A program made the position numbers and the translations under genes. A stretch of DNA of 64,000 bases from contig JANLPS010000019.1 of NCBI GenBank assembly GCA_031367385.1, forward strand, positions 15,263 to 79,262, in the 5' to 3' direction. Position 1 is the stretch's first letter; each line of letters begins with the position of its first letter. This document shows positions 33,361 to 49,743 of this stretch, in pieces. The notes below the pieces were generated by a model that saw only the letters and a list, made by a program, of their open reading frames with translations, was not told the DNA's origin and ran no database searches. The stretch is from Archangium sp. (lineage in GTDB: Bacteria; Myxococcota; Myxococcia; Myxococcales; Myxococcaceae).

Positions 33361-33371
33361 AGAGGAGAAAA

Positions 33372-33399
33372 GGGACGGTCGAAGGTCGGTGGTGTCGAG
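33372..33399 (+). promoter_or_regulatory. Repeated upstream motif, ECF promoter-like (copy 1)
   Basis: GGGAC-N18-TCGAG; 22/28 identical to 35521-35548. Confidence 0.5.
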
Positions 33400-33451
33400 C
33401 TGAGTAGGAAGAAGTTTCTCATTCTCTCTTACTCCGCGAGCCCCACCCACC

Positions 33452-35512
33452 ATGGACATTTCGGCCACCAGCAGCGTCACCCGCCCCATCGCCTCTGAAG
33501 TCGTCGACGCAGCGCCCGACACCGCGGCGACGACGGCGACGCAGCCCGCCGACTCCAGCGCTGCGAGCAGCTTCGCCACCGCCAAAGACGTGCCGGTGGT
33601 GCTCGACGCGCAGGCAGACGCGCTGACCGTGTCGGCCGATTCGCCCAGCTACCGGGTCTCGTGCTCGGGAGGCACCTTGATCGCGACTGGTGATGCGCAA
33701 CCGGGGCAAAGCCAGGGCGCCAAAGACGCGTACGCCACGATGCAGTTCACCGAGACCCACGTCGAGTCGAAAGAATACCAGGCGCTCACCTGGGCCTTCG
33801 ACGGCGCGCCCGACAAGCAGCTGGCCACCCAGGTCAAGGCCGACGCGCTGGCGTACCTCGAGAAGACGCCGGGCCTCAAAGACGCGTGTGACGCGGCGGT
33901 CGTCGCGTGTGGTGCGGTGCCCTCGAAAGTCGAAGGCTTCAAAGTCGACTTCGCGCTCAATCACTTCGAGAACGTCGGCGCCGCGAAGGGCCTGAAGTGG
34001 GGTGAGACCGAGAAGCAGGTCAAAGACATGCTGAAGACGAGCCGGGCAGAGGCTGCCGAGAAGAAGATCACGGTGCTCGACACCAAGGGTGGCAACGGCC
34101 AGAAGATCAGCGGCTACGTGGTCGCGAACGATCGCAAGGTCGTCAACATGGACGGCTCGAACAACACCATCGACATGTGCAGCGTGCCGTTCCCCCGGCC
34201 CTCGGGGCACTCCGATGCGATTCTCGGTGGCAATCACAACTCGGGTCAGGTCGACATGGTCGGCACCGTGCTGATCAGGGCCGGCAGCGAAAACACGTGG
34301 ACGGTGAAAGACCCCTCGCAGCGCCCCGCGCTGAACCCTCCCGCGACCGAGGTGGCCGGGTTGATCAAGCCCGAGCTTGCCGCCGCCGCCAAGAAATCGA
34401 GCATCGTGCTCGAGGGCAACTCGGCTGACTGGTCGGTGCTCGCCAACGGCGCGACCGCGACCTACACGAATACCAAGACCAAGACCTCGGTGTGCATACC
34501 CGCCGGGGCGCAAGGCCAGGTCTCGTACGCAGCCTCCTCGGCGCTCGACAAGATGGCGGCTGACCTGAAGGCCGGCGTGAAGCCAGCCGAGGTCTCGGTG
34601 TGCCTCGACCCGAACACCATCACCAAGCCCAAGCCGAAGACGGTGACGCCTCCCACCGACGGAGGCCCTGAGCCGACCAGCACGCCGGTCACGAGCAAGC
34701 CCGGGCCGGCCGTTGAGTCGCAGCCAGAGCTGAGCGCCTCATTCGACCAACTGTTGTCGTCGGTGCCCCCGAAGATGGCGAAGCGGTTAATCTTGGCGTG
34801 GCTCAAGAAAATGGGCATCACGCCGAACCCTGACGGCACGCTGGCCTCATTGAAAGAGCAGCTGGCGGGCCTCATGAAGAGCGTCGGCCCAGCGAAGGCG
34901 GCGATCATCGAGAACTCGATTCGCCGCGAGGCCAAGAAAGAAATGGCCATGCTGCCCAAGTCGCCAGAGAAGCTGCTCCAGCCCTTGAGCAAAGCGCCGG
35001 TCAGCACCACCGCGACGACGCCCACCACCACCTCGAAGACCTCGCCCTTCTACGACCCCTACGCGATGGCCGGCCAGCCGACGACCGAGCAGCTGGTGGC
35101 GGCGCAGGCGAAGGCCAACCTCGAGCCAGACCCGGTGAAGCGCGCGGCGATGCTGCAGACCATCGATGGTGTCTATGAGTCGAAGAAGCAGCACGCGGTC
35201 GCGGCGCAGATCGAACAACGCGCGCAGCAAGACAGCGCCGCGAGAGACATGTGCGGCACTGAAAAAGAGCGAAGCCGTCAGCTGATGACCGACAACGGGC
35301 TCAACTCCGCGGCGATCAACCAGGCGATGACGTTGATCGACGAGCAGTTCCTCGCCGCGAAGATCAACGCGATGGAGCACGGCGTGCCGTTCACCTCGTT
35401 CAAGTCGACCGCGGCTGAAGACGCGATCGCCCACGCCCTGCAGGTGATGCACGCCGACATGGCCCAGACCGGCATCACCGCCGAAGCGTGGATGGCGCGG
35501 CAACGCGGGTAG
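33452..35512 (+). CDS. Hypothetical protein (686 aa), low-complexity N-terminus
   Basis: Long ORF with strong GC3 bias; Pro/Thr-rich linkers; no recognisable family. Confidence 0.8.
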   Translation: MDISATSSVTRPIASEVVDAAPDTAATTATQPADSSAASSFATAKDVPVVLDAQADALTVSADSPSYRVSCSGGTLIATGDAQPGQSQGAKDAYATMQFTETHVESKEYQALTWAFDGAPDKQLATQVKADALAYLEKTPGLKDACDAAVVACGAVPSKVEGFKVDFALNHFENVGAAKGLKWGETEKQVKDMLKTSRAEAAEKKITVLDTKGGNGQKISGYVVANDRKVVNMDGSNNTIDMCSVPFPRPSGHSDAILGGNHNSGQVDMVGTVLIRAGSENTWTVKDPSQRPALNPPATEVAGLIKPELAAAAKKSSIVLEGNSADWSVLANGATATYTNTKTKTSVCIPAGAQGQVSYAASSALDKMAADLKAGVKPAEVSVCLDPNTITKPKPKTVTPPTDGGPEPTSTPVTSKPGPAVESQPELSASFDQLLSSVPPKMAKRLILAWLKKMGITPNPDGTLASLKEQLAGLMKSVGPAKAAIIENSIRREAKKEMAMLPKSPEKLLQPLSKAPVSTTATTPTTTSKTSPFYDPYAMAGQPTTEQLVAAQAKANLEPDPVKRAAMLQTIDGVYESKKQHAVAAQIEQRAQQDSAARDMCGTEKERSRQLMTDNGLNSAAINQAMTLIDEQFLAAKINAMEHGVPFTSFKSTAAEDAIAHALQVMHADMAQTGITAEAWMARQRG

Positions 35513-35588: not shown

Positions 35589-36950
35589 ATGAAGCTCGCC
35601 AGCGCAGCGCTTGTTCTGATGATGGCGACGAGCTGTGACTTCGGCGCCGCCATGGTCATCACCACCGATTTCGAGGGAGCGACCGACGCTGGTCGCCGAT
35701 TCGCCGATGGTGGTGTGCGCGCCGACGCCGGTGCGGGCGTGGCGGTGCTCGATGCAGGCAGGCGGCCCCAGGTCGACGCGGGCGAGCCAGGGTGTTTTCG
35801 CGACGCCGATTGCCGACCGAATTTTCACTGCAAGGGCAATGGCGAGTTCGCGGGCGAATGCATCGCCGACCCCGGTACGTGCACCCACACCACCTGTGGC
35901 ACCTCGTGCGGCACCGTCGCTGACGTCTGCGGCGGTACCATTGCGTGCGGCGCGTGCGCCTGCGTGAAGGGCATTTGCGGCAGCTCGTGCGGCGAAATCT
36001 CAGACGGGTGCGGCGGCACGCTCGACTGCGGCACCTGCAACGCCTGCGTCCCGCTCTCCTGTGGCGCCTCGTGCGGCACCATTCCAAATGGGTGTGGGCG
36101 ACACCTCGACTGTGGCGCGTGCCCCACCTGCTCGGCCACCATCGGTAACTACCGCAGCCACACCAGCAACGAAGAATTCATCGACCCTCCGACGGCCGTG
36201 GGCGCGCCGGGGCCGATCAGCGGGTTCTCGGCATTGAGCTCACCAGTGCCAGTCGGAGCCACCACCATCGCGCTGAGCGGGTCGGTGCCGAACGCGCAGA
36301 CCTGCTGCTGGCAAGTCGAAGGCGCGGCGGGTGGGCTCACCACCGGCTCGGTGGCTCCAGGGGTTGACGGCGCGATCTCAGCGACGCTGCCGATCTTCTG
36401 CGGCAAGAACACGGTGCGTTTGGTCTGCGGCAACGGCGCCGGCTCGCGGGTGCTCATTCGCGAGCTCGATGCCCCCTGTCAGCCCAAAGACCTGCGCGTC
36501 ACCCTCGGGTGGGACGATCAAGGCACCGACATGGAGCTGCACCTGGTTCGCGACCACGGGCACGTCAATACGGAGCTCGATTGCACCTGGTACACCTGCG
36601 TGAACCGCAACATCGGCTGGAGCGCGACGCCGGCCTCGAACCCGATCAAAGACGTCGATGACGTGACTTACGACGGGCCAGAGAACATCTACCTCGACAC
36701 CGCAGCGCCCGGCACCTACCACGTGTTGGTCGAATACTGGGGCAGCGGCGCACCCTCGAAGAACACCATCACCGTCGCGGTTAAAGAGAAGACCGTCGGG
36801 TCGATCAGCAGAACGCTGCAAGTGCATGAGGTGTGGTACGTCGGCACCGTAACTTTCCCCAGTGGCGCGATTGCGGCGGTCGACACCGTGACCGACTGCG
36901 CCGCCAGCTGGCGAAAAACGACGCATGGCTGTGATTTGACGCTGCCGTAG
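35589..36950 (+). CDS. Cys-rich lipoprotein with C-terminal YfaP/DUF2135-like domain
   Basis: Lipobox ATSC; three CG.SCG....CG....CG.C repeats; LRVTLGWD...DMELH...DVDD...GPENI. Confidence 0.85.
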   Translation: MKLASAALVLMMATSCDFGAAMVITTDFEGATDAGRRFADGGVRADAGAGVAVLDAGRRPQVDAGEPGCFRDADCRPNFHCKGNGEFAGECIADPGTCTHTTCGTSCGTVADVCGGTIACGACACVKGICGSSCGEISDGCGGTLDCGTCNACVPLSCGASCGTIPNGCGRHLDCGACPTCSATIGNYRSHTSNEEFIDPPTAVGAPGPISGFSALSSPVPVGATTIALSGSVPNAQTCCWQVEGAAGGLTTGSVAPGVDGAISATLPIFCGKNTVRLVCGNGAGSRVLIRELDAPCQPKDLRVTLGWDDQGTDMELHLVRDHGHVNTELDCTWYTCVNRNIGWSATPASNPIKDVDDVTYDGPENIYLDTAAPGTYHVLVEYWGSGAPSKNTITVAVKEKTVGSISRTLQVHEVWYVGTVTFPSGAIAAVDTVTDCAASWRKTTHGCDLTLP

Positions 36951-37068
36951 CGATTGTTGCGTCAACTGATGCGGCCGCGGCATCGAAGGCCGAGCCCATG
37001 TCACGTCACGTGCGAATCACTCCGATTCTCGAGCAGCGGTGGGCGTGTTGCTCTACGGTACGCGCCCC

Positions 37069-37788
37069 GTGACCCCCCGGCTCCTCTTCGCTTGCCTGGC
37101 ATTGGTGACGGCCTCGGGCTGCATCACCGTGTACCAGCCCTTGGTGTCGCTGCAGCGGCCCTTCGCGGTCGACCCCGAGTTGGCCAACTTCGAGGGCCAG
37201 AACATCTTGGTGCGCTGCGTGCCCGGCGACTACGTCGAGCTGCCCGATGCGCAGCAACTCTGTCAGCAGATGCGCGAGCTCTACGAAGCGCAGAGCGCGA
37301 AGGTCGAGACCGATGTACCGCGAAAGAACACGGGGTTTCTGACCACCAAGTTCAAGCCTGATCTGATCGTCGAGCTGCGCGGCCGGCTCTTGAAACGGGA
37401 GACCAGCAATTTTCTGATCAACCTGCTCTTTTTGGCCTCGGCGTCGCTGATACCCACGACCGAAGAGATCGAGATCGCGCAAGACGTGATCATTCGCGAC
37501 GCGAGCGGCTTTCAGTTGGCGCAAGACTCGCTGCAGGCGCGCTTCGTGCGGCAGTACGGGCTGGGCGTGTGGGGCGTCAACGCGCTGGTCGATCTGATCG
37601 TGCGACCCAAGAATCAGAAGATCACCGGAGACGGCTACCGGAGGGATTTCAGCGCGGATTTTTACGGTCACCTGAGCGAGCTCGCGTTTCATGCCCGCAT
37701 GCGCTCGGCGATCATGCATGAGTTTGATCAGCCGTTGACCGTCGCGCCCCCTGCTTCGACGGCCCCTGTGCCGAAGGCCAAGCCGTGA
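37069..37788 (+). CDS. Lipoprotein, gene 1 of the motor-like operon
   Basis: Lipobox ASGC; internal hydrophobic hairpin; GTGA overlap with the next gene. Confidence 0.8.
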   Translation: MTPRLLFACLALVTASGCITVYQPLVSLQRPFAVDPELANFEGQNILVRCVPGDYVELPDAQQLCQQMRELYEAQSAKVETDVPRKNTGFLTTKFKPDLIVELRGRLLKRETSNFLINLLFLASASLIPTTEEIEIAQDVIIRDASGFQLAQDSLQARFVRQYGLGVWGVNALVDLIVRPKNQKITGDGYRRDFSADFYGHLSELAFHARMRSAIMHEFDQPLTVAPPASTAPVPKAKP

Positions 37789-38414
37789 AGCTGCTGCCGA
37801 TGGCCCTGGTGTTGAGCGGCTGCGCCTACGACCCGTCACCCGGCTTGTCACACACGCGCCGTGAAGCACGAAACTTCGAGTGCCAACGCCTGGGGCAAGA
37901 AGAGGCCCACGACCGGTACCCGGGCGACATACCACCGGTGCCGCCGCGGCAGATGGCGCAGGCGATGACCGAAGCGCTGGTGTGCGAGCCGCGCTTCATT
38001 TCAATCGATGATCGCGCCCCGCGTGACGAGGCGATCTTGTCGACCCTTCGCCGTGATGTCGGGGCACTGACCGAGCTTGCCAGCACCCTCACTCCGGGAG
38101 CGCTGGTCTGGCACGTCGATGCGTTTTACCCGGAGCAGGCGGTGGCCTCGAAGATCTCAATCGCCGCGAAGACCGAGCTGTTCGAGCGCGGCCGCGCGGT
38201 GTCAGACCGCGTACCGACCCTGGCCGCCGGAGACATCTCGGTGCTCAGCCGGCTGCCTCCCAACCAGGCCTATGCGACCGCCTGCACGCGCTATTTCGCG
38301 GAGCACGTCTTGGGCGAGCACGACGTTTTTCTCGGGCTGATGGTGGTCGACCCCCGAGAGACCCAGCTGCACGCGGGCGTCTGCCAGGCCGGCAAGTGGC
38401 GGTGGGTGCAATGA
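37785..38414 (+). CDS. Lipoprotein, gene 2
   Basis: Lipobox LSGC; 4-nt overlaps on both sides. Confidence 0.8.
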   Translation: MKLLPMALVLSGCAYDPSPGLSHTRREARNFECQRLGQEEAHDRYPGDIPPVPPRQMAQAMTEALVCEPRFISIDDRAPRDEAILSTLRRDVGALTELASTLTPGALVWHVDAFYPEQAVASKISIAAKTELFERGRAVSDRVPTLAAGDISVLSRLPPNQAYATACTRYFAEHVLGEHDVFLGLMVVDPRETQLHAGVCQAGKWRWVQ

Positions 38415-39601
38415 AGCGCGCTCTCTTGGCAATGCTGGTGTCATCGGTCGCCTTCGCCAACCCCGACCCCAAGACGCCCGACGCGCAGCGAGCGCAGATC
38501 GAAGCCGTGCGTGCAGAGATCGCCGCGCAAATTCAACTGCAAGCCTACGACCTCATCGACGAGCTGGTCTTCGAGTGGCTGCAGAACCCACCCTTTGGCG
38601 TGGCCACCCCGCTGGTGTTGGCCGACGTCGGAGTGCCGGTCAGCTTCGGCAGTGGCCTGCAGGCGCTGATCGAAAATCACCTCACCTCAGTCGTGCTCAA
38701 GAACCCGCGCTCGAACGTCGTGCTGACCCACTGCCCGGCGTGCACCGCGATGGTGGTGCACTCTGGCGCGAAGGGCACGGTGGTCTCGCGCGGGGTCGAT
38801 TCACCCGAGGCGTTGGCCGAAGCCGGCACCGCCGCACAAAGCAAGCATGCGTTGTTTCTCGACTTCGAGGTCGAGGGCAGCGCGATGGTCTTGCGCGTGC
38901 GAATCACCTCGCTCGAGCCTTCGTTGCCCATCGTCTACGCGAAGACGCTGACCACCTCGACCGGCAGCGCCGCCTTGCTGCGTACCGGAGATCGTCTGAA
39001 GAGCGCCGCCGACGCGCGCAAAGAATACACCGACATTCTCGAGAACCGCAGCACCTGGACGATACCGATCAAAGTCGGCGTGAAGACCTACCCGCCGGGC
39101 TTTCAAAGCATCCCCGCGCCCCCATTCATTTGGATCAGCGGGGGCGTCGAGGCGGGCTTCAACCAGGCGCGCGCGTGGTTGGCGAGCTTCTCGGTGGGGG
39201 TGAGCTGGGCACCGCAGTCGCACACCGCGTGGTCGGCCCAAGCGCGCGTCGCCCGGCTGCTCACCGGTACGGTCAGCTCGCTCACGCACCCAGATCTGTA
39301 CTTCTTTCTCGGCGCGTCGATCGTCTCGGTCTACGGCAACTCAGCCCTGTTGTTCTCAGACGATGACGTGAGCATCGACGAGCTCACCAGAATCATCACC
39401 AACAACCCCAACCAGACCCCGTCGCGCACGTTCGGCGCGTTTCAAATCGGCCTCGAGCTTCGGGTGAAGAACCGCATCGGCGTCGGCGTCTACCTCGAGA
39501 CGATACCCGCGCTGGCCAGTGACAGAAACATCGGCAACTACCTGAACCTGGGCCTGCTTCGTTTTCAGACCTTCGGTGCCGAGGTGTCGTTTTGCTTCTG
39601 A
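38411..39601 (+). CDS. Secreted protein with probable C-terminal outer-membrane beta-barrel, gene 3
   Basis: Signal peptide VAFA; CPAC motif; amphipathic beta-strands; ends GAEVSFCF. Confidence 0.7.
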   Translation: MKRALLAMLVSSVAFANPDPKTPDAQRAQIEAVRAEIAAQIQLQAYDLIDELVFEWLQNPPFGVATPLVLADVGVPVSFGSGLQALIENHLTSVVLKNPRSNVVLTHCPACTAMVVHSGAKGTVVSRGVDSPEALAEAGTAAQSKHALFLDFEVEGSAMVLRVRITSLEPSLPIVYAKTLTTSTGSAALLRTGDRLKSAADARKEYTDILENRSTWTIPIKVGVKTYPPGFQSIPAPPFIWISGGVEAGFNQARAWLASFSVGVSWAPQSHTAWSAQARVARLLTGTVSSLTHPDLYFFLGASIVSVYGNSALLFSDDDVSIDELTRIITNNPNQTPSRTFGAFQIGLELRVKNRIGVGVYLETIPALASDRNIGNYLNLGLLRFQTFGAEVSFCF

Positions 39602-40572
39602 ACGTTCGGTTGATCTGTGTGTCGGCGCTGGTCCTCGCTCCGGCGGTGGCCCAGGCGCAACGCGAGATCACCCGCAATGCGTTGCTGCGCTTCGAAGAGA
39701 CCATGTCGCTGCGCCGCGAAGAAGGGGCGCGCGAGGTCAAAGAGCTGCTGCCGGCGATCGTGATCAGCGTCACGCCCGCGTTCGAACAGACCCGGGCCTG
39801 GTACCCGACCGCCGCCCTGGCCTCGCTGGTGCACGTCTTCGGAGCCCCCTCGTTGCGCTCGTGCGAGGCCTGCATGGCGCCCCATGCGTACATCGCGAAT
39901 GGCCGCTTCGAGCAGTCGTCGACCGCGTTGACCGCGGCCGAAATCACCCGGCTCGATGCGCTGGCGAGAGGTAAGAGCGCTCCCGCGCGAATCGCGATCT
40001 GGCTCGACGAAACGACCGAAGGGGTCTCGCTCAAGGTCATCGACTTGCAGAACAGCCGCATCGTGATGGCCCAGAACTTCGACCCGAGCTTGAGCGAGCA
40101 GGCCCGCACCACCAAGGGGCAGACCTTCGCCGAAGAGCTCGACCGCCGGCAGCGCGGAGACAGCCTCACCCACACCTTCATCGACGTGGCGCTCTACCCG
40201 GGGCAGCACATCTCGCTCGACTGGGCCGAGCAGTGGGGCGACACCAACGCGAACCTGTCGGGCGTTTCGCTCTCGCTCTTCGACCCCGTGCTGGGCGTTG
40301 GCGCCGAATATTTTCGCGTCATACCGCAAGCGTTGAACCTGATGGTCGGCGCGAAGGTCTTGCTCAGCGTGCCCACGGCGTTGATTCAAGCCATCGCTGG
40401 GTCGAGAGGCCAGGTGCCGACCTTGTTCGACCCGATCATCACCGGCGTGTTCATGGTGCGCCTGCCCATCGCCAGCTCGAATTACGGCGTCATTCTCTCG
40501 GTCTCGACCAACGGCCGTGTCGGCCTTGGCTTCTCGTTGATGAACCTCTCATTGCTACCCTTCTTGCCATGA
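39592..40572 (+). CDS. Secreted protein with beta-rich C-terminus, gene 4
   Basis: Signal peptide AVAQA; CEAC motif; beta-strand-like C-terminal half. Confidence 0.7.
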   Translation: MLLNVRLICVSALVLAPAVAQAQREITRNALLRFEETMSLRREEGAREVKELLPAIVISVTPAFEQTRAWYPTAALASLVHVFGAPSLRSCEACMAPHAYIANGRFEQSSTALTAAEITRLDALARGKSAPARIAIWLDETTEGVSLKVIDLQNSRIVMAQNFDPSLSEQARTTKGQTFAEELDRRQRGDSLTHTFIDVALYPGQHISLDWAEQWGDTNANLSGVSLSLFDPVLGVGAEYFRVIPQALNLMVGAKVLLSVPTALIQAIAGSRGQVPTLFDPIITGVFMVRLPIASSNYGVILSVSTNGRVGLGFSLMNLSLLPFLP

Positions 40573-41204
40573 ACCGACTCCTGCTTTTCACCGTGGCGGC
40601 GATGTGCGCCTCTGGCTGCGCGGCACGAAATTACACCTACTTTCTGGTCGACCCGAACCCGCAGCGGCACCCTGCGCTCAAAGAAGAGGGCACGCTGATG
40701 CGGCCCTTCGCGTACGGCTCGACCACCGTGATGAAGGTCAGGTGGAACGACGGCAACCTGATCACCGAGGTCGACGTGCCGGTGATGGCCTCGGGTCAGC
40801 GAATCGTGATCGAGCACGGCGCGGGCAGCAGCGAGGTGAAGACGATACCGGCGATGCGGGTGGTGCCTCCGACGCCGACGCCGGCTGACACGGCGTTGAT
40901 CGAGGCGTACCGCGCGCGTGGGTTGCGCATCAACGAAGACGCACCCGACGTGAGCATCATTCGCGCCCGCACCGAGATGCAAGACGCGATCAAGACCGGC
41001 AACTACCAGATCGCCCTCGAGTGGGCCGAGACGGTGCTGCAGCGCTACAAGTCGCACCCCGAATTCTTACGAGCCAAGGCCTCGCTGCTGTTGATGATGG
41101 GCGAGCGCGACAAGGCGATTGAAGTGTACGAGCAGGTCGAGGGCATCGAGAGCGACCCTGCTGTTCGAAAGAAACTCGAAGAGCTGCAACGCCAGCAGAA
41201 GTAG
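40569..41204 (+). CDS. TPR lipoprotein, gene 5
   Basis: Lipobox ASGC; TPR-like A.LL..MG..DKA..VYE helix pair; ATGA overlap. Confidence 0.8.
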   Translation: MNRLLLFTVAAMCASGCAARNYTYFLVDPNPQRHPALKEEGTLMRPFAYGSTTVMKVRWNDGNLITEVDVPVMASGQRIVIEHGAGSSEVKTIPAMRVVPPTPTPADTALIEAYRARGLRINEDAPDVSIIRARTEMQDAIKTGNYQIALEWAETVLQRYKSHPEFLRAKASLLLMMGERDKAIEVYEQVEGIESDPAVRKKLEELQRQQK

Positions 41205-41214
41205 GAGAAACGTC

Positions 41215-41925
41215 ATGCAGATCATTGGTCTCGTCATGTTGGGGTTCATCGTGTGGTTCGGGTTCACCGACCGCACTGGCAGCGGCGTCATCTCGGCGTT
41301 CGACTCGCACGCATTCGTGATGGTGCTGGTCGGCTCGGCTGCGGCGGTGATGGTCAGCTCGACCGGCAAGACCGCCTTGCGCACGATCACCGCGCTGCGA
41401 GAATTGATCCCCGGGTTTCGGCTCTTTGGGCGGGTCACTTCGGCGATGGAGGCCGAGCGTGAAGCGGTCTGCGCGGCCTGGCGAGAAGGCAAGCGCAGCC
41501 AGGCGTTGGCCATCGCCGAGCGCAGCACCTACCCGGCGGTGAAGCAGGTCGCCGAGCTGCTGCTCACTCGCTCACCCGCGGTCGCCAGCGCGAAGGTGTT
41601 TCTCGAATTGCGTCACGGCGAGATCAGCTTCTGGCAGCCGCCGATCAACAACTGGGAGATGCTCTCGAAGCTCGGCCCCTCGTTCGGCATGGTCGGTACC
41701 ATCACCGGCATGATTCAGCTCTTTCGAAACATGAGCTCAGACAATTTGAACATCGGCGCGGCAATGTCACTCGCGTTGCTGGCCACCTTGTACGGAGTCG
41801 CATTCGGCGCCGGCGTCGCCGCCCCCATCGGGCACTACTTGAACGGCTTGCTCGACGAGCGGCTCGGGTTTCTCGAGCGCTGCGAAACCAGCGTCAATGA
41901 GCTCGTCGCCCGCGGAGCCATCTAA
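41215..41925 (+). CDS. motA: MotA/PomA-like stator A subunit, gene 6
   Basis: Four TM segments; GPSFGMVGTITGMIQL and IGAAMSLALLATLYG signatures; AGGAG SD. Confidence 0.88.
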   Translation: MQIIGLVMLGFIVWFGFTDRTGSGVISAFDSHAFVMVLVGSAAAVMVSSTGKTALRTITALRELIPGFRLFGRVTSAMEAEREAVCAAWREGKRSQALAIAERSTYPAVKQVAELLLTRSPAVASAKVFLELRHGEISFWQPPINNWEMLSKLGPSFGMVGTITGMIQLFRNMSSDNLNIGAAMSLALLATLYGVAFGAGVAAPIGHYLNGLLDERLGFLERCETSVNELVARGAI

Positions 41926-41928
41926 CCC

Positions 41929-42552
41929 ATGCAACGCCGCAAGATGGGCAATGAGGAAGGGTGGCTGCTCAGCTACGCCGACCTGATCACCAACTTGCTC
42001 TTGTTCTTCGTCGTGCTGCTCACCGCCGCGAACTTGAGCAAGGGGCGCATGCAACAGATTGCCAAGAGCATCTCGGGGCAAGAGAGCCCGCAGAGCCTCG
42101 AGTCGATGCGCAAAGAAATCGACGCGCAGATTCAAAAGCAGAAGCTGCAGGAGCTCGTCGCGACCACCGTCTCTGAAGCGGGCCTCGAATTGTCACTCAA
42201 TTCGGGCCTGGTGTTCGACTCTGGCAAGGCCGCGATTCGCCCCGAGCTCGAGCAGACCATCAACGCGATGCTCACCACGCTGACCCCCTACTCCTCGAAG
42301 TACCAATTCGCGGTCGAGGGCCATACCGACCCGACGCCAATCAACGGCGGGGCCTTCGCCAGCAACTGGGAGCTCTCGAGCGCACGCGCCATCGTGGTGC
42401 GGCAACGGCTCGAAGACGTCGGCATCTCGCGCGGCCGGGTTCGCGTCGAAGGGTACGCCGATACGAAGCCGTTGCCTGAAGAGCAGCTCAAAGGGTTGAC
42501 CCCTGAAGAACGCATGGCCCGGCTCCGCCGCGTCGTGGTGAGGATCTACTGA
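41929..42552 (+). CDS. motB: MotB-like stator B subunit with OmpA-like peptidoglycan-binding domain, gene 7
   Basis: WLLSYADLITNLLLFFVVL (conserved Asp); VEGHTD, NWELSSARA and GYADTKP motifs. Confidence 0.92.
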   Translation: MQRRKMGNEEGWLLSYADLITNLLLFFVVLLTAANLSKGRMQQIAKSISGQESPQSLESMRKEIDAQIQKQKLQELVATTVSEAGLELSLNSGLVFDSGKAAIRPELEQTINAMLTTLTPYSSKYQFAVEGHTDPTPINGGAFASNWELSSARAIVVRQRLEDVGISRGRVRVEGYADTKPLPEEQLKGLTPEERMARLRRVVVRIY

Positions 42553-44384
42553 TGCGTCTGTTTCTGATCAGCACCCTGGTGTCTCTCACCGCGCTCGCGC
42601 AGACCGCGACGCAGCCCGCGCCGATACCGGGCAAGCACATCCCCGCTCCGGTGTTGATGGAGCTGCGGGCACTCGAGAATCAATTCGACCTCTCGCTTGG
42701 CCGCGACTGCGCGCCTGAGAAGTGCATCTCGAAGGGGTGCGTGTATCAAGACCACGCGGTCGTCGACATGCCGCGCAACGCATCGCTGCCAGGCCTGGGT
42801 CAAACCGAAGGCCCGGGCAGCGTGCCGATTCAGGAGTACCTGACCGTCGCGCACTGTGACTTCGCGCACGAGAAGTCGGTGTCGCCGCGTGATGTGGCCG
42901 CGTTGGTGAAGCGCCTCGAGCAGCGCCTGGCCAAGGGCTGGCTGCAGGTCACCGTGGGTCACCAGATTCTCGAGCCGATCTCCGAGAGCCTGCGTGACTC
43001 GCCGCCTCCGCCGCCGGTCGTCGAGCCGGTGAAGCCGAAAGAGCCCGTGGCCGCACCACCGCCTCCCCCAAAGTGGGACGCCGAGGTCGCGCTGCGAGAG
43101 CTGTGGGTGGCCCTGTTGCCCCACTTCTCGTGGATGGCGGCGATCGGGTTGCTCACCGCGGCGACGTTGATGATCATCTGGGCCCTGCGGCGGCTGGGCA
43201 GCCAGACCCTCGAAGAGAAGGCGATGCTCGCGCAGCTCAACGCGGGCACCTTGACGGGTGCTCCGGCGGCTGAAGACCCGGCCGAGAAGAAAGAAGAAGA
43301 GGCGAAGACCGATGGTCTCTCGCTCGAAGATCAAGCCAATGCGGCCTTCGTGGCCGAGCAACATACCCAGTGGGGTTCACGCTTCGACAAGGCCGATCTC
43401 GCCAAAGACGACAGCGTGGTGGTCGAGCTGTTGCGCGAGTGGCTCAGGGCCGGCGAGTTTCCCCTGCTGGCGAAGGCGATCTTCACCTTTGGCGATCGCC
43501 TCTCGGTCGCCTTCCCCTCCGACGGGGAGTACGCGGTGCGCAAGGTCGAGTTCGCCGAATATCTGCGCTCACTCGACCGCACGATGCTGCCTTCAGACTC
43601 AGCCTTTTATCGGCAGCTGAGCCAACACGCGATCGCGGCCTCGCTGAACGCCCAATCTGACGCAGGCATTTATCTCAGCCTTCGAGAAGAGTTCGGCAGC
43701 GCGGGCATCGCGAGCTTGATCGAGCGGCTGCCCGAGCGTCACGGTGCGCTGCTCTTCGGCCTGGTGCCCTCTGACGTGCAAGACGAGGTCGCCCGAGCGC
43801 TGCCCGCCGACGTGCGGCTCGAGACGGCCCGTCAGCTGTTGCTCACCAACCGCATCTCTCGAGAAGAGCGCGGTCACTTGTTCGAGGCCATCGACGCGGC
43901 GCGGGCTGGGCTGGCGCTGCCGCTGACTCCGCCGGCGAGTGACAACGACGTCATCGACCGTGGCCGCGAGTTCGACGCCGCCGGCGCGCTGTCGATGCTG
44001 CTGCCTTTCATCGACGCAAAAGACCGCCGGTCGCTCTTTCTCACCGCGTACCAGCGCTCGAACGGCGCGTTGCCGCACTGGTACGAGAGCATTCTGTACC
44101 CCGACATGCTGCTCAAGGTGCCCAGCGAACTGCAGGCCGACATGCTCCTCGAGGTCGACGTCAAAGGCCTGGCGGGCTGGTCATCGTTGCAGTCGCCGGC
44201 CTGGCAAGAGCACTTCTTGGCGGCCTTAAGCCCGTCATTGCAGAACGCGCTGCGGGCCAGCATGGCGTTTCGCTCGCGGGCCGATCAGCTCAACGCCGCC
44301 CGAAAAGGCCAAGCCGAGTTGGTCGCCTCGGTGAAGAAGCTCGTCACGCAAGGCAAGGTCACCTTCTCTGAGATCGTGGCCTGA
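42552..44384 (+). CDS. Membrane-anchored protein with periplasmic N-domain and cytoplasmic FliG-M/FliG-C-like domains, gene 8
   Basis: Signal peptide, Pro-rich linker, TM followed by RR; C-terminal PDMLLKV..ELQADMLLEVD...FLAALS...GQAELVASVKKLVTQGKV resembles FliG-C. Confidence 0.7.
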   Translation: MRLFLISTLVSLTALAQTATQPAPIPGKHIPAPVLMELRALENQFDLSLGRDCAPEKCISKGCVYQDHAVVDMPRNASLPGLGQTEGPGSVPIQEYLTVAHCDFAHEKSVSPRDVAALVKRLEQRLAKGWLQVTVGHQILEPISESLRDSPPPPPVVEPVKPKEPVAAPPPPPKWDAEVALRELWVALLPHFSWMAAIGLLTAATLMIIWALRRLGSQTLEEKAMLAQLNAGTLTGAPAAEDPAEKKEEEAKTDGLSLEDQANAAFVAEQHTQWGSRFDKADLAKDDSVVVELLREWLRAGEFPLLAKAIFTFGDRLSVAFPSDGEYAVRKVEFAEYLRSLDRTMLPSDSAFYRQLSQHAIAASLNAQSDAGIYLSLREEFGSAGIASLIERLPERHGALLFGLVPSDVQDEVARALPADVRLETARQLLLTNRISREERGHLFEAIDAARAGLALPLTPPASDNDVIDRGREFDAAGALSMLLPFIDAKDRRSLFLTAYQRSNGALPHWYESILYPDMLLKVPSELQADMLLEVDVKGLAGWSSLQSPAWQEHFLAALSPSLQNALRASMAFRSRADQLNAARKGQAELVASVKKLVTQGKVTFSEIVA

Positions 44385-44431
44385 ACGTGGTTCGACGGGC
44401 TCACCGTGAGAGTCACGGGCACAGGCGCACC

Positions 44432-46438
44432 ATGAGAGTTGCGGTTCTCGCGCTGCTCTTCGCGGCTTGCGAAAAAGTGCCCATCGTCGACATCGGAGCG
44501 ACCTTTTCACTCTCCGATGCGACCTGGTTTCAAGACGAAGAGACCCTGTTCATTTTCTACCGGGTCGAAGCCCTGCAGGGCCTGGGGCCGAAGAGCCAGA
44601 TCGAGGTCACCTACCGCACCGACGACCTCGAGCAGCCGTGGGCGAACATCGCTGATCTGCCCGCGGTGCATACCCACCTGCCGGTGAGCTGTGGTCAGTA
44701 CATGCTGTGTGGCAGCACCAGCCTTCACGTCAAGACCGTGCCACGCGATGTCGGCATTCGGCTGCGCTACCACCATGACGGCTCACTCGCGGCCGAGTCG
44801 ACCGTGACCTTCAACGTCGTGGGCTCAGGCCCAGCGCACCTGAGCCGGAGCCTGCTGATCTACGGCGTGTTCGATGCCACCAACACCCACGTGCAGTGGC
44901 GCGCGCGACACCAATTTCCGACCTTGCGAAATCAGCAGGTTCAAGACCTGGGGCTGCGACGATTTTTTCGCGTCGAGACCCCGAGCGTGGGTGACCTGCA
45001 GGGCCAAATCGACGGCAACCCGTACGCCTACGCCTTCGCGCGCAGGTGCCCCGACCACTTCATACCTCTGGGTTGGGCCGTGGCCGCCACCACGACCCGC
45101 GCCATCTTCGCGGCCGAGAGCGTGCCGGTCACCGCCTTCGACGCGCCAGTCATCTGCGGTGAATCGACAGTGACCGACGCCAAGGGCACCTTCAGCGCCG
45201 CGGCCCTCGCGCAGAAGAACCCTCAGACCCGGGCCGCGTTTCCCTCGCTGCGCAGCCCGATCACCGAGAACACCCCGATTGGTTTTTCAATCGAGCCTTG
45301 CGAGCGCACCATCGACGCGGCTGAGCTGGCGATGCAGAAGCAGCGGCTGCAGTTGGTTGGGGCTCCAATCATCTGCAACGACCACTGGCAAGACCCGGCC
45401 TTCGTTGACCGCGTGGTATCGACCCTTCGCACCGCCATCGACGGCGTGCGCACCGGCGGCAAAGACATGGTGCTCTCACTGGCCGTTCATCACGACGACA
45501 CCACCGGCCAGTTTCAAGCCACGGTCGAAAAGGCCCTCGCGCAGATCTTGCCGTTCGAGCGCGAGAAGAGCTCCCCCCGCCTCAGCGGGGCGTTCGTCTT
45601 CGACACCGTCGCGCACCTGGTGTCTGACAAGGCGGTCGCGCGCTTGGCGCTCTGGTGCCCGTCGAACATCGCGGCGGTCGACCTCGATACCGTGAGCAAC
45701 GCGTCGCTGCGCTCCTGCCCGGTGTTGCCCGACATCCCTGATCTCATTCTCGGGCCGATCAAGCTGAGCAGCTTGCCAATCTTGCCGACCCGCGCCCAGT
45801 TCGACACCTTCATCGCGAAGTACTCGGCCCAGCTGACCGGCAGCGTCACCCAGATTCACTACCTCGCCCCAGAGCGCACGCCGACGTCGGCCAACATCCC
45901 CATCGGTGACTTCGGCGTGGTGACCTTCTTCAACAATGAGTCGTTCGCCGCCGCGGCGACCGATGCCTTCTCGTTCTGCACCACTGAAGATTCACGCGTC
46001 AGCTTCATCGCGGTGCGGGTCGCCGATTTTCCCAACAACCCGTTTCCCCTCTCGACGTTGCCCGACTTTCACTCGCAGATGCCGCGCGACACCTACCAAC
46101 TGGGCATCGGGTGGGACTTTCCGTTTCTGTTGCGGCTCGAGTACCAGGTGGTGCTGGCCGGGGCGGCGTCGGCCTTTTCGGTCTCGGTGCCTTTCGGCAT
46201 CGGCGCGCCCAGCAAGGGGTACTACGGCGCCCAGCTGTGGGAAACCGGCGAGATACCGCTGACCGACGCCCTCACCCAGTGCACGCGCTTCTGTGACCTG
46301 CCGACCTTCGATTCTGCCGGCGTCTACAACGTGAGCTCGCACTTCCGCTCCACCTACGGGCATCAGTGCTACCGCCCGGCGTACCCAGTGTTCGACGCGG
46401 CCCACATTGGCGAGGGGGGGTTCCCGCTTGATCCTTAG
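44432..46438 (+). CDS. Large Cys-containing lipoprotein, gene 9
   Basis: Lipobox FAAC; about 670 aa, beta-rich. Confidence 0.8.
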   Translation: MRVAVLALLFAACEKVPIVDIGATFSLSDATWFQDEETLFIFYRVEALQGLGPKSQIEVTYRTDDLEQPWANIADLPAVHTHLPVSCGQYMLCGSTSLHVKTVPRDVGIRLRYHHDGSLAAESTVTFNVVGSGPAHLSRSLLIYGVFDATNTHVQWRARHQFPTLRNQQVQDLGLRRFFRVETPSVGDLQGQIDGNPYAYAFARRCPDHFIPLGWAVAATTTRAIFAAESVPVTAFDAPVICGESTVTDAKGTFSAAALAQKNPQTRAAFPSLRSPITENTPIGFSIEPCERTIDAAELAMQKQRLQLVGAPIICNDHWQDPAFVDRVVSTLRTAIDGVRTGGKDMVLSLAVHHDDTTGQFQATVEKALAQILPFEREKSSPRLSGAFVFDTVAHLVSDKAVARLALWCPSNIAAVDLDTVSNASLRSCPVLPDIPDLILGPIKLSSLPILPTRAQFDTFIAKYSAQLTGSVTQIHYLAPERTPTSANIPIGDFGVVTFFNNESFAAAATDAFSFCTTEDSRVSFIAVRVADFPNNPFPLSTLPDFHSQMPRDTYQLGIGWDFPFLLRLEYQVVLAGAASAFSVSVPFGIGAPSKGYYGAQLWETGEIPLTDALTQCTRFCDLPTFDSAGVYNVSSHFRSTYGHQCYRPAYPVFDAAHIGEGGFPLDP

Positions 46439-47195
46439 CGTCCTCCTGATGGTGGCGTTGTCGGTCGACCCCCCGCCTCCTCCAGACGACACCTCGCTGA
46501 CTTCGCAACGCACCGCCTTCGACGCGTTGACCGAGCGCGCCCTGGGCACCGCTTCACGCGCCGTGCGCTTCGACTGGAGACGCACCACCGTCGGCTTCGG
46601 CGTTTCTTCGAGCATCGTGCTCGACCTCAACAATTTCTCGAGCGGCCGCGTCGGAGGCTTCGCGCGAATACCGGCCGGGAGCTTTTTGATCGAGCTCGCC
46701 ATCACCCGGGTCATCAGCTGGGGCAGCGCCAGCTCGTACCAGCTCTCATTGACCCCCTACCGGCAGTACGGCCGACCGAGCCGGGTGGAGCTCGACCTCA
46801 ACGTCAGCTACCCGCTCTTCGAGGGCGTCGCGACGGCGAAGCTGGGCTTCATCCCCGCGGCGCAGTTCGTGTTTTCAATCACCGCGGGCCTTCGGTACCT
46901 CTACTACCCAGGCTCGCTCTCGAAGATGACGGCGCCCCAAGTCGCTGGTGCGCTCTTCGCCCCGAACCTGGGAGAAACCGAGGTCGCCAACATGGAGCCC
47001 CAGCTCTTGCCGAGCATGCAGATCGATCGCGGCCGGTACCAAGTGATGGCTGGGTTCTCGCTCGACGTGTTCTTTCAGCCGGGTCTGTTCGTGACCCCCC
47101 GGGTGCTGCTGGGCATACCCGTCACCACGCTTGGCAACGGGCAGGGCGTTGGCCTGTGGTGGGAGCTCAGCCTGCTGGCCGGGTGGCAGTTGTGA
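46428..47195 (+). CDS. Probable small outer-membrane beta-barrel protein, gene 10
   Basis: Signal-like N-terminus, alternating beta-strands, ends ELSLLAGWQL; TTG start is an estimate. Confidence 0.65.
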   Translation: MILSVLLMVALSVDPPPPPDDTSLTSQRTAFDALTERALGTASRAVRFDWRRTTVGFGVSSSIVLDLNNFSSGRVGGFARIPAGSFLIELAITRVISWGSASSYQLSLTPYRQYGRPSRVELDLNVSYPLFEGVATAKLGFIPAAQFVFSITAGLRYLYYPGSLSKMTAPQVAGALFAPNLGETEVANMEPQLLPSMQIDRGRYQVMAGFSLDVFFQPGLFVTPRVLLGIPVTTLGNGQGVGLWWELSLLAGWQL

Positions 47196-49114
47196 CCGGA
47201 GCGCTGGGGCTCGCGGTGATGCTCTGCGCGCTGACGGTCTCGGCGCAATCGACCGACTTGCAGCCCACCGTTTTTTACAATGCGCGCATGGCACTGCGTG
47301 AAGGCGAGCCCGCGGAGTCGCTCAAGTTGTGGCTCTTGCGAAACAGCATCGTCGACCAGGGCATCGCGCCCAGCAATGACACCGATTTTCACTCGGTGCT
47401 GTGGGTCGCGCTCGGAGACCTGGGGCTGTGCCAAGACGGCATCGCCAAAGACGAGCACGGCGGCGCGGGGCTCTGGCCGCTCGCGATGCACAACTGGGTG
47501 CTGACCTCGGTGGCAAAGGGCGGGCCCGTCGACAACCCGTCACCCTTCGATGCGTTCGAAGCCGGGCTGCAGCAGCGCTTCATCTCGCTGCATGACGTGC
47601 TCTCGAGCGAAGAGCTGCGTTCGGCGAGCTTCTTTCGAACCAACTGCTGGGCGCCGCAGGTGGTGATGCTCGATCAGGGCCAGCCCGTCGTCACTGAGCT
47701 GACTGATCGCCTCGTCTCGGGCCCCTTCTTGAAGTCACTGCTCGAGCGCGCGCTGCGAACGATGTCGAAGACCAAGGTGCAGAATCGGGCGATTCTCGAA
47801 GCACGGTTGTTCGATCTCGACCTGGCGATGGCGGCGCTGCTCGAGCGGCAAGCCGCACAGCTTGCCCAGCAGCGAGCCCAAGATGCCCGCGGCGCCGGGG
47901 CCTCGGAGCGAGCGGTCAAAGACCTCGAGACCCGAACCAGGCGATGGTCGGTCACCACCAAGCAGGCCGAGTTTCTTCGTCGAGCGCTGACCTGGCCGGT
48001 GCGCGATTGGCTGGTGCTAAGCCAACCCCGGCGACTCTCGTTGTTCGCGCAGGCACGGGCGGTCTCGAATGACGAGCACCCCGGTGACCCGCAGCCCTTC
48101 GAGGCGTTGCTGTTGGGCCTCATCGACGAGCTGATCGAGCGAAAAGCCGGCGCTGAGCTCGAGCTGTGGCTTGGGTGGCTCGACGCCAGCAAGGTCACCT
48201 CGCGACGCCAAGCGCTGATCACCGGAGAGCGCGGCAAACGAATTCTCGAGCTCGACGCCGAGTCTGGCTTTCGCGAGCGCTCGGTGATTGCGCTGCACCG
48301 CGGGCTGGCGTTTCTCGAAGCGGGCGACATGCGTGAAGCGTTGATTTCGTTCGCCTTTGCGATGGCCCACGCCGAGAGCTCGCGCGAGCCCACCGTCACC
48401 ATGTCGCTGGCACGTCGCTGGGTCTCGTACGTACTGGCGCGCTACGAGGCGACCGACGAGGTCATCGCCACGCTGAAGGCCTTGGTACCCTCGCAAGAGT
48501 ACAACTCGGTCGTCGAAGACTTGATCTGGCGCGCGGCGCTCAACGCCGATTTGCCATCGTTCAATCGATTGATGGCGACGACCCGGCGTGGAGGCTCGTT
48601 CGATGCGCGGGCCATTCGCCTCAGGCTCCTCGCGCAAGGCAACGCCGGAGCGTTGGCCACCCAGCTTCGAGACGCGGTGAAAGAAGAACCGTTCTTCACC
48701 GTTCGCTTCGTTCGGCAGGTCATCGAAAAGCTCGAGGCCGAAGAGGTCGACGTGCGACGCGCGAACGTGCCGCTGATCAAGCTGATGGTGCAGGTGCTCG
48801 ACGCGGTCATCGGGCAGGCGCAAGGCAACTCGGCCCACGCGCGCGCCGCCGAAGAGCTGCTTGGCCGCACCCAGGGGTTGCTCGAGGGGCTCAAGGCCTT
48901 CGAGCCATCGGTCACCGGCAAGGCGCGCGCCCTCTCGCCAAACCACGAAGCGTTCGCGGGCAATATTCGGCTCGCGCCGACCGACCCGCTGCCGTGGCCC
49001 TTTCAAATGCCTGACCCCGAGCCGCCCTCGGCGTTCACGCCGATCACCATCACGCCCGTCGAGTGGCGCGACCCCCAAGGCGCCCTGGTGTTCGGGTGGA
49101 GGCTCTCGGAGTGA
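47192..49114 (+). CDS. Secreted alpha-helical/TPR-like protein, gene 11
   Basis: Signal peptide VSA-Q; helical repeats; GTGA overlaps on both sides. Confidence 0.75.
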   Translation: MTGALGLAVMLCALTVSAQSTDLQPTVFYNARMALREGEPAESLKLWLLRNSIVDQGIAPSNDTDFHSVLWVALGDLGLCQDGIAKDEHGGAGLWPLAMHNWVLTSVAKGGPVDNPSPFDAFEAGLQQRFISLHDVLSSEELRSASFFRTNCWAPQVVMLDQGQPVVTELTDRLVSGPFLKSLLERALRTMSKTKVQNRAILEARLFDLDLAMAALLERQAAQLAQQRAQDARGAGASERAVKDLETRTRRWSVTTKQAEFLRRALTWPVRDWLVLSQPRRLSLFAQARAVSNDEHPGDPQPFEALLLGLIDELIERKAGAELELWLGWLDASKVTSRRQALITGERGKRILELDAESGFRERSVIALHRGLAFLEAGDMREALISFAFAMAHAESSREPTVTMSLARRWVSYVLARYEATDEVIATLKALVPSQEYNSVVEDLIWRAALNADLPSFNRLMATTRRGGSFDARAIRLRLLAQGNAGALATQLRDAVKEEPFFTVRFVRQVIEKLEAEEVDVRRANVPLIKLMVQVLDAVIGQAQGNSAHARAAEELLGRTQGLLEGLKAFEPSVTGKARALSPNHEAFAGNIRLAPTDPLPWPFQMPDPEPPSAFTPITITPVEWRDPQGALVFGWRLSE

Positions 49115-49743
49115 CGCCTCGTGAGCTGCGCAAGTCGATTCGGGCCTCTCAACGCGCGCTGCGTGCACGCGTCGCGGCGATGCCGCAGATTCAAAAGGCC
49201 CGGCGAACGACTCGGCTCAAACGCCTTCGACGCGCGCTGACCGTCGCGGTGGTGCTCTTGCTGCTCAGCTTCATTCGCTGCGACTGCGGCCAGGGCCCCC
49301 TGCCCGAGCCGTTCGTGGTTGACGCGGGAGCGCCCCTCAAAGAGCCCATCAAGCCCAAGCCACCACTGGTTAAAACCCTGAAACCAGGCGCGCTCAGCGG
49401 CAAGGTCGCGCTCGCGCCACGCGATGGGTTCGACCCGAATGCCCGCACCTCACCCGATTGGCTCGACGCGTTCAGGCTGCAGGTCGCCGCACGAAGCCCG
49501 CGGTTGGCCGAGTGCTTTCAAGGCACCGACCACCCCGGTGCGCTCCGCTGGGCGACCGCGGTCAACCCCGACAGTGGCGCGGTGTCAGACCAGTCGTTCG
49601 AGCCGATTGGTGCGTCGATTGACCTGACCCACGAGCAGAAGGTGTGCCTGAGCCGCGTGCTCGCCTCGCCACCGTACAAGGTCGTGACCACGCCGACAGA
49701 CAAGGCCTTGCCCAACCGGGTCAGTTTGATCATCGAGTTCTAA
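49111..49743 (+). CDS. Bitopic membrane protein with Pro-rich linker and TonB-C/AgmX-like domain, gene 12
   Basis: Basic N-terminus, TM helix, Pro/Lys linker, RLAECF...G.L....V.P.SG.V....CL...L pattern. Confidence 0.6.
   Translation: MTPRELRKSIRASQRALRARVAAMPQIQKARRTTRLKRLRRALTVAVVLLLLSFIRCDCGQGPLPEPFVVDAGAPLKEPIKPKPPLVKTLKPGALSGKVALAPRDGFDPNARTSPDWLDAFRLQVAARSPRLAECFQGTDHPGALRWATAVNPDSGAVSDQSFEPIGASIDLTHEQKVCLSRVLASPPYKVVTTPTDKALPNRVSLIIEF

Follow-up and report, generated by a model that had tools for sequence, protein, structure and literature searches.

Gene X (42552-44384, + strand) lies in a 64,000-nucleotide stretch of Archangium sp. DNA (assembly GCA_031367385.1, contig JANLPS010000019.1, positions 15,263 to 79,262), which was analysed as a whole and is called the window here. 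In this study, we found that its product is a remote homologue of the flagellar rotor protein FliG, with FliG-M and FliG-C regions and a FliG-N-like region. The gene belongs to a twelve-gene operon that also encodes a MotA/MotB stator pair. The operon is genuine and conserved and encodes what seems to be a so far undescribed envelope machine around a flagellar rotor-stator core; its function is predicted. We propose, with a probability of about 60%, that X is the core of an ion-driven, switchless, non-flagellar rotary envelope machine with its own MotAB stator. A sequence-only reading of the window had suggested a self-anchored rotor resembling FliF and FliG at this position, and this suggestion was followed up here.

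FliG homology and the likely FliF part of gene X

Flagellar FliG is a soluble torque receiver that docks on FliF. Unlike soluble FliG on its separate FliF, X carries a likely signal peptide and a transmembrane helix in the same chain. The open reading frame (ORF; 610 aa) contained every peptide quoted in the sequence-only reading, and most of the topology described there was recovered. The N-terminus is hydrophobic and ends in an AxA site (identified by eye), a single transmembrane segment at residues 191-213 is marked by R213-R214, and the AlphaFold model (mean pLDDT 82.8, pTM 0.56) is helical over residues 258-610. The exported domain contains cysteines as described, but its size of ~160 aa did not hold; the folded part covers ~115 aa (28-143) and is followed by a Pro-rich linker. 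Cysteines 53, 58, 63 and 102 were invariant in 70/70 family members, and positions 213 and 214 were Arg in 64/70 and 56/70, respectively. A second linker at residues 232-253 is acidic and of low confidence in the model. X relatives at E<=0.001 numbered 217 and were mostly annotated as hypothetical proteins (Archangium, Hyalangium and other Myxococcaceae).

Of the models proposed for checking the sequence-only reading, FliG_C stayed below threshold with X as a single sequence. A profile search of 1.84 billion representatives returned 168 family members. The family profile was built from 70 sequences (63 full-length scanned matches, four more and three closer relatives) and included no FliG. Against the PDB, this profile matched T. 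maritima FliG-MC colinearly over ~220 positions with E 2e-16, and nine FliG entries outranked the best MgtE entry (E 5e-5, ~65 positions). The generic MgtE-N match, which had been named beforehand as the outcome that would count against FliG, was thus 11 orders of magnitude weaker by profile. Profile-profile comparison with a 20-sequence FliG profile gave a probability of 97.4% over 299 columns, covering X 287 to 607. A profile from only 104 close X relatives had no PDB match, and the FliG signal required distant members. Among 67 distant members of the X family, seven passed the FliG_C Pfam cut-off and one passed that of MgtE_N. Of eight subtype-II proteins, described below, seven passed the FliG_C cut-off and two the MgtE_N cut-off. 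The Pfam scan of X found neither CBS domains nor the membrane domain of MgtE.

Structural comparison gave the same order. In a Foldseek search with the X model, the top 12 rows were all FliG or FliF entries. VIA-align superposed X on FliG-C 1qc7 with Z 10.4 and a root-mean-square deviation (rmsd) of 2.2 over 88 of 89 residues, and on 1lkv with Z 10.7 and rmsd 3.4 over 120 aligned residues. X also aligned with near-full-length FliG in 8umd (301-610 against 5-325) and 3hjl (300-604 against 10-325). For the FliG-N part, the alignments reach FliG residue 5-19, but confidence in the columns is low and the rmsd over the whole chain is high. Such Z values are only moderate for helical folds, so FliG homology rests mostly on the sequence profile. 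The FliG-M and FliG-C likeness noted in the sequence-only reading was therefore borne out by profile, profile-profile and structure searches.

The segment after the transmembrane helix resembles the C-terminal tail of FliF. E. coli FliF 450-550 (TM2 to the end) aligned with X 194-301 at 12 bits, and profile-profile comparison of X with the FliF tail gave E 6e-4 over 25 columns. As a control, a profile of X 185-305 was searched against 20,930 sequences (20,886 ORFs of the same genome, 24 FliF and 20 FliG). Ten of the 14 best non-self matches were FliF proteins, in each case at their C-terminus, and FliF still made up 7 of the top 25 when the transmembrane helix was removed from the profile. W297, in the candidate counterpart of the FliG-binding Trp motif of the FliF tail, was kept in 50/55 close relatives.

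The exported domain resembles the third ring-building motif (RBM3) of FliF. It aligned with the FliF S-ring 8z5v with Z 8.7 and rmsd 3.5 over 95 residues (Z 7.9 over 97 residues in another alignment) and with SpoIIIAG with Z 6.5 over 96 residues. Its best family in the ESM Atlas was YscJ_FliF_C (0.84), which is taken as a lead only. A 22-aa insert with an invariant P80-G81 lies between strands 1 and 2. This position agrees with RBM3 and SpoIIIAG, whose inserts are placed between strands 1 and 2 in the available text of PMC4768692. A G-x-P-G motif occurs in the RBM3 insert of 11/24 FliF proteins, but as short motifs recur, the parallel is only suggestive. X has one folded periplasmic domain and one transmembrane helix, with no TM1, RBM1 or RBM2, and no TIGR00206 (FliF) match was found at its locus. 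The FliF-half reading is favoured because the order of an RBM3-like domain, a transmembrane helix, a FliF-like tail and FliG-N onward is that of the 3' half of fliF followed by fliG in flagellar operons. These results make a natural FliF(C-half)-FliG fusion the likely identity of X, with weaker evidence for the FliF portion. The FliF-tail-like segment and the RBM-type exported fold also support the idea of a self-anchored FliF- and FliG-like protein, while the ring itself would follow by analogy.

Stator genes, operon and distribution

The MotA and MotB encoded just upstream of X are of flagellar type. MotA best matched PomA/MotA, not TolQ/ExbB, and both prolines were present in 57/57 sequences. 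MotB best matched MotD/MotB (E 1e-36), and its Asp18, which corresponds to E. coli D32, was kept in 58/58 family members. MotA and MotB share 48-80% identity among carriers, and their key residues are intact. The MotA proteins of X operons formed their own branch in a quick MotA tree with an unstable outgroup. No direction of descent was drawn from this tree because it was quick, its outgroup branches were long and some of its 'flagellar' rows were chosen by score only.

The torque interface has changed on both proteins. According to the available text of PMC12505986, MotA E98 pairs with FliG R281 and MotA R90 pairs with FliG D288/D289 in E. coli. The three FliG residues align with S562, A569 and S570 of X, which agrees with the absence of the usual Arg and acidic pair from the torque-helix equivalent in the sequence-only reading. 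In 55 close X relatives, designated subtype I, the R281 site was Thr in 21, Ser in 20 and Ala in 13, the D288 site was mostly Ala, and the D289 site was mostly Asn or Ser. Conserved acidic residues of X lie at D518, E526, D530, E534 and D536. In subtype-I MotA, R90 was found in 46/57 and E98 in 0/57, with Leu or Val at the latter position in 56/57. One charge pair (FliG R281 and MotA E98) has been lost on both sides in subtype I. This paired loss fits the re-evolved stator interface that had been proposed, which may be what the sequences record. The columns of the EHPQ motif had an L-P-P-R consensus in close X relatives, and the motif was replaced in all subtypes.

An X relative was found in 88/401 sampled Myxococcota genomes, and two further subtypes were distinguished. 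Subtype II, a weaker class of which ten loci were inspected, has the core order barrel protein-TPR-motA-motB-X. Seven of the ten loci had a barrel gene nearby that resembles OMP_myx_plus below the cut-off (E 1e-7 to 1e-9), and four had a TonB/AgmX-like gene. Its torque charges were largely present (R/K281 8/10, D/E288 8/10, D/E289 10/10), and MotA R90 was kept. Subtype II is represented at L110-L119 (for example, L110:2591-12602), and some Archangium genomes have both subtypes. In subtype III (L172-L177), from the phylum of a Silvanigrellaceae genome, motAB was divergent from the rest of the operon in 6/6 loci inspected. R/K281 was present in 16/24 of these proteins, and the acidic residues were not kept.

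Other FliG-like proteins were also observed. Proteins of 790-890 aa with a C-terminal FliG-like domain (70-82 bits to FliG) occur at L178:8211-10889, L179:7899-10307, L180:8292-10667 and L181:9098-11659; motAB was found within the 20 kb inspected at one of the four, and three were without it there. At L184:3872-8001 and L183:899-2906, motA is followed by two motB-like genes. In L184 they are preceded by a 441-aa frame whose C-half is FliG-like and which weakly matches the FliF tail, another fusion variant.

X is the eighth of twelve genes in an operon at 37039-49743 (Table 1), in which genes overlap at 8/11 junctions and no gap exceeds 47 bases. The start codon of X shares one base with the motB stop codon. 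The GC content at third codon positions of X (0.83) is similar to that of the adjoining genes, and the GC content of the operon agrees with the window. Gene order was the same in all 63 genomic loci found, where motB was present in 60, motA in 58 and the remaining genes in 44-57. Missing genes fell at contig ends, except for two divergent genes, one of which was later recovered. By title, the carriers were Myxococcota, Bradymonadia, Silvanigrellaceae and unassigned Deltaproteobacteria, with no Myxococcus or Corallococcus among the 63 titles. A metagenome scan with one distant X member gave no confirmed locus. X and its neighbours were split by frameshifts in a few assemblies (L047, L072, L182), and a similar case is protein P0215, in which MotB reads through into X. 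Since several genes are split at once in L047 and L182, these splits suggest sequencing error.

Several of the neighbours resemble outer-membrane or TonB-type proteins. The model of the 38411 product matched the OprF barrel (Z 15.6, rmsd 2.1, 126 aligned) and LpoB (Z 10.1, rmsd 3.7, 132 aligned). The 38411 and 39592 products both matched one subtype-II family (probability 98.1 and 94.7), and their direct comparison was not significant. In the Atlas, the 49111 product scored 0.94 against clusters in which 31% and 43% of the members carry TonB_C. Its relatives had no Pfam hit, the TonB model reaching E 0.085 in 1/36 members, and its subtype-II counterpart had a weak AgmX/PglI match (E 0.012). 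Lipobox-like starts were seen by eye in four operon genes. PDB profile searches with the 37039, 38411, 39592, 44432, 46407, 47192 and 49111 products returned nothing meaningful. Pfam and NCBIfam scans of relatives of the operon neighbours gave stray sub-threshold matches only.

Table 1. Genes of the X operon and parts of X, by position in the window
Feature	Position	Strand	Description
Likely lipoprotein, conserved	37039..37788	+	Start uncertain; no family match
Likely lipoprotein, conserved	37785..38414	+	No family match
Exported protein, LpoB/TolB-N-like domain and predicted 8-stranded outer-membrane barrel	38411..39601	+	Structure model
Exported protein	39592..40572	+	Likely same architecture as 38411 product
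Likely lipoprotein with C-terminal TPR	40569..41204	+	TPR_2 E 5e-5, below cut-off
MotA	41215..41925	+	236 aa; R90 and both catalytic-type prolines kept; Leu at E98 position
MotB	41929..42552	+	207 aa; MotB_plug and OmpA peptidoglycan-binding domain
Gene X	42552..44384	+	610 aa; predicted rotor subunit that joins a FliG-like part to a likely C-terminal half of FliF
X, likely Sec signal peptide	42552..42599	+	aa 1-16; AxA site by eye; AxAQ in family consensus
X, exported domain	42633..42980	+	aa 28-143; alpha-beta-beta-alpha-beta (AlphaFold model); likely related to FliF RBM3 (S-ring)
X, Pro-rich periplasmic linker	42981..43079	+	aa 144-176; sequence, low pLDDT
X, single transmembrane helix and R213-R214	43122..43193	+	aa 191-213; hydropathy 1.99; likely FliF TM2 equivalent
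X, FliF-C-tail-like helices	43323..43454	+	aa 258-301; conserved Trp motif at end; individually weak evidence
X, FliG-N-like region	43455..43700	+	aa ~302-383; structure alignment and profile-profile
X, FliG-M-like armadillo domain	43701..43910	+	aa ~384-453; FliM-binding EHPQ motif replaced
X, FliG-C-like domain	43968..44381	+	aa ~473-610; structure alignment
X, torque-helix equivalent	44232..44261	+	aa 561-570; without R281/D288/D289
Likely lipoprotein, conserved, Cys-rich	44432..46438	+	668 aa; no family match
Exported protein, conserved, possible outer-membrane barrel (by eye only)	46407..47195	+	Start uncertain; no family or PDB match
Exported protein, conserved	47192..49114	+	640 aa; no family match
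Single-pass protein, Pro-rich linker, likely TonB-C/AgmX-like C-terminal domain	49111..49743	+	Transmembrane helix 39-61

The gene directly upstream of the operon was in 0/63 related loci. It encodes an exported Cys-rich 453-aa protein (35589-36950, +) with a weak DUF2135 match and paralogues in the genome. Elsewhere in the window are a 1192-aa fusion of a Ser/Thr kinase with an NB-ARC/AAA domain and TPR repeats (28357-31935, -) and two large ORFs (439 and 686 aa; 32041-35512, +) that are of low complexity at the N-terminus and match no Pfam family.

Myxobacteria are usually described as non-flagellated. The genome that carries the window (98% complete, 562 contigs) had no flagellin, flgI or rod/hook match and no flagellar FliF or true FliM, export-gate genes lying outside this genome-wide search. 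Its only FliF, FliM and FliG_C matches were in a type III secretion locus, not a flagellar one. In this locus (L001:209-2448), an SctJ-like gene is followed by a 466-aa protein with FliG_C above the cut-off (24.7 bits), and a FliM-like domain lies 5 kb further on; these two proteins are probably SctK- and SctQ-like. The operon has no FliM/FliN, export gate, rod, hook, filament or switch genes. The sole same-genus genome, which is the closest relative, has flgI and a flagellar motB, so the absence of flagellar genes from the carrier of the window could be recent or due to an assembly gap.

The wider pattern across the host family and other carriers is firm. The family counts combine genome sets that differ by a few genomes, and as kin are not independent they are given as counts with no statistical test. 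There were 60 X-type loci in 55 genomes, with a MotB plug within 3 kb at 58/60. Among the 55 carriers, the P-ring gene flgI was absent in 36, including ten assemblies of 1-3 contigs, and 19 had both; 25 genomes had flgI without X. All but one of the 45 high-scoring (flagellar-type) MotB plugs were in flgI genomes and none was beside X, whereas 58 of the 64 mid-scoring plugs were beside X, seven weak matches having been set aside. Three of the six mid-scoring exceptions were inspected and proved to be a frameshifted X locus, another FliG fusion and a short contig. In five genomes without rod/hook genes, 7/7 MotB-plug genes adjoined an X-type gene, and no flagellin, FliF or rod/hook genes were found in complete Archangium genomes. 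Flagellin was present in 28 and absent in 23 of 51 carrier genomes (the window's own and those of 50 of the 63 loci), and those with flagella encode complete FliF, FliG and MotAB separately. In the myxobacterial host family, 45/190 genomes had a flgI match (44 strong), and one carrier genome (G024) had 23 flagellin matches.

Predicted mechanism and alternative explanations

On the strength of gene linkage, we consider a partnership between the stator and X highly probable. As predicted here, the exported domain would act as an S-ring-type ring-building motif, and the segment after the membrane would correspond to the FliF tail, which ordinarily binds FliG-N and in X is covalently linked to it. 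By analogy with the flagellar motor, X would oligomerise in the inner membrane via its RBM and armadillo repeats, and we lean towards a rotating ring of X. MotB would anchor on peptidoglycan, ion flow past Asp18 would turn the MotA pentamer, and the pentamer would drive the FliG-C-like domain through the altered charge interface. Because the operon lacks FliM/FliN and X lacks EHPQ, rotation is expected to be in one direction and free of chemotaxis control. Since RBM1/RBM2, collar, export gate and rod are lacking, nothing should be secreted through the machine. In the least certain step, force would pass via periplasmic lipoproteins and the TonB-C-like protein to the outer-membrane barrels, and surface complexes would be moved or remodelled in the manner of Agl-Glt or Tol-type machines. 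Surface motility or adhesion is a tentative suggestion for the output.

Several observations weigh against this proposal. Ring formation and MotA contact of X are carried over from the flagellar motor. The D288/D289 charges are gone in subtype I while MotA R90 is retained, so the canonical torque interface is not intact. Taken singly, the FliF-tail scores are weak, the best being 17 bits (E 0.008). The fold of the exported domain is widespread, with CzrB CTD (CDF C-terminal; Z 9.5, rmsd 2.2, 80 aligned) and KH (Z 8.7, ~80) aligning equally well, and a sequence profile of this domain gave no FliF enrichment (best rank 57). The output step is based only on fold likeness of the neighbours, and six of the twelve operon products (37039, 37785, 39592, 44432, 46407, 47192) had no match in any library searched. 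In the available text of PMC10941966, an engineered Vibrio FliF-FliG fusion assembles rings, but its FliG part is floppy without FliM/FliN. Finally, searched alone against Pfam, X matched MgtE_N (E 8e-4) ahead of FliG_C (E 0.015), both below the cut-off, and matches at E<=1 among 70 close relatives were 64 for MgtE_N, 11 for FliG_C and 7 for FliG_M.

The last observation would suit a cytoplasmic sensor of MgtE-N type, with X gating MotAB as an ion channel and playing no mechanical part, as would the two of eight subtype-II proteins that pass the MgtE_N cut-off. We regard such a sensor as very improbable: its ~65 positions stand against ~220 colinear FliG positions, structure searches put FliG first, CBS and MgtE membrane domains are lacking, and the FliF-like tail and nine envelope genes would be left unexplained. 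The main rival is a TonB/TolA-like transducer that forms no ring, in which one or a few copies of X would grip the rotating MotA pentamer and pull outer-membrane partners via the Pro-rich linker. The presence of this linker, the single RBM-like domain of common fold, the torque-helix charges lost in subtype I, and the TonB-C-like and TolB-N/LpoB-like barrel proteins of the operon are all in keeping with it. We still judge it unlikely, as X retains the whole FliG N-M-C architecture, subtype II retains the torque charges and the operon already has a separate TonB-like gene. FliG in flagella polymerises by armadillo stacking, and TonB and TolA couple inside the membrane, not via a cytoplasmic FliG domain.

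The operon could also be a Zorya-like anti-phage system or envelope-damage sensor in which peptidoglycan-anchored MotAB signals through X. Its patchy distribution (54/184 family genomes, 12/15 in one genus) and the match of MotB to ZorB models (E 2e-20) would agree with this. However, MotB is far closer to flagellar MotD/MotB, MotA has no ZorA match, and the other 11/12 operon proteins had no PADLOC match. The operon contains no nuclease or helicase gene, its order is fixed across phyla and its GC content is that of the window, which makes such a role improbable. An accessory to, or decaying remnant of, a flagellar system is already largely refuted and is the least credible of the alternatives. 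It would account for flagellin in 28/51 carrier genomes and for flgI and flagellar motB in the same-genus relative, and the 562-contig genome may have an assembly gap. Yet flgI is missing from ten carrier assemblies of 1-3 contigs, and flagellin, FliF and rod/hook genes are missing from complete Archangium genomes. Moreover, carriers with flagella have complete FliF, FliG and MotAB in addition to X, 25 flgI genomes lack X, and MotA and MotB are well conserved with intact key residues. The rotary envelope machine with its own stator is therefore preferred.

Comparison with known systems

If the proposal is true, no simpler natural rotor-stator pair than X and MotAB would be known, and the pair could serve to test ideas on the origin or re-use of the flagellar motor. 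The pairing of a conserved, intact stator with a single-chain rotor in non-flagellated bacteria would mean that the motor core works on another load, and X, MotA and MotB are a three-gene rotor-stator candidate for reconstitution. The charge interface offers a natural experiment, as subtype II keeps the charges while subtype I has lost the matching pair. Cultured carriers are available (Archangium, Hyalangium, Pseudobacteriovorax), which makes function directly testable. There is about an even chance that the operon defines a new class of rotary machine outside the flagellum, with a one-gene FliF-FliG ring, a private MotAB, a re-evolved interface and TonB-like and lipoprotein links to the outer membrane, in at least three subtypes from predatory Myxococcota and Bdellovibrionota-type lineages. 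For some carriers, it may be a second surface-motility or prey-contact motor.

A natural FliF-FliG fusion has reportedly been noted in Chlorobium tepidum, which our literature search did not find. Neither the X operon nor a membrane-anchored FliG that has a stator of its own was described in the literature searched, which covered few subscription journals; the stator list of PMC12505986 could contain family members. In its available text, this stator phylogeny mentions no such FliG-like partner and treats flagellar-type MotAB stators as flagellum-specific.

The fusion of Chlamydiaceae and the engineered fusions of Salmonella and Vibrio share with X a FliF part covalently on FliG (available text of PMC4768692 and PMC10941966), and the engineered proteins assemble rings (same sources). 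In the available text of PMC4768692, the Chlamydia fusion (~330 aa) has two transmembrane helices, no SpoIIIAG-like RBM3 and only a FliG-M-like region, and the flagellar genes listed for Chlamydia include no stator. X differs in having an RBM3-like domain, one transmembrane helix, FliG through the C-domain and its own MotAB.

With the flagellar motor core, the operon shares FliG N-M-C, likely counterparts of RBM3, TM2 and the FliF C-tail, MotA R90 and both prolines, and the MotB plug, catalytic Asp and OmpA domain. It differs in that X is one polypeptide without TM1, RBM1, RBM2, the full beta-collar or EHPQ, in the loss of torque charges in subtype I, and in its dedicated outer-membrane partners. 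Agl-Glt and Tol/Ton also have an ion motor, and the predicted TonB-C/AgmX-like single-pass protein, TPR lipoprotein and small outer-membrane barrels of the X operon would resemble theirs. The motor of the X operon, however, is MotA/MotB with a plug and peptidoglycan anchor, not TolQR or AglRQS, and has a FliG-like partner. The same genome has seven separate ExbB/TolQ-family genes and six OMP_myx_plus matches outside the operon. MgtE shares a related armadillo-like helical repeat in its N-terminal domain, whereas X is colinear with FliG over two domains and has no CBS or transporter domain. Zorya ZorAB is also a peptidoglycan-anchored 5:2 ion motor outside motility, but the X operon lacks the ZorA tail and ZorC/D/E and has a FliG-like partner and nine envelope genes. 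By these feature tests, the X operon stands outside the flagellum, Agl-Glt/Tol/Ton and Zorya, while its parts themselves belong to known families.

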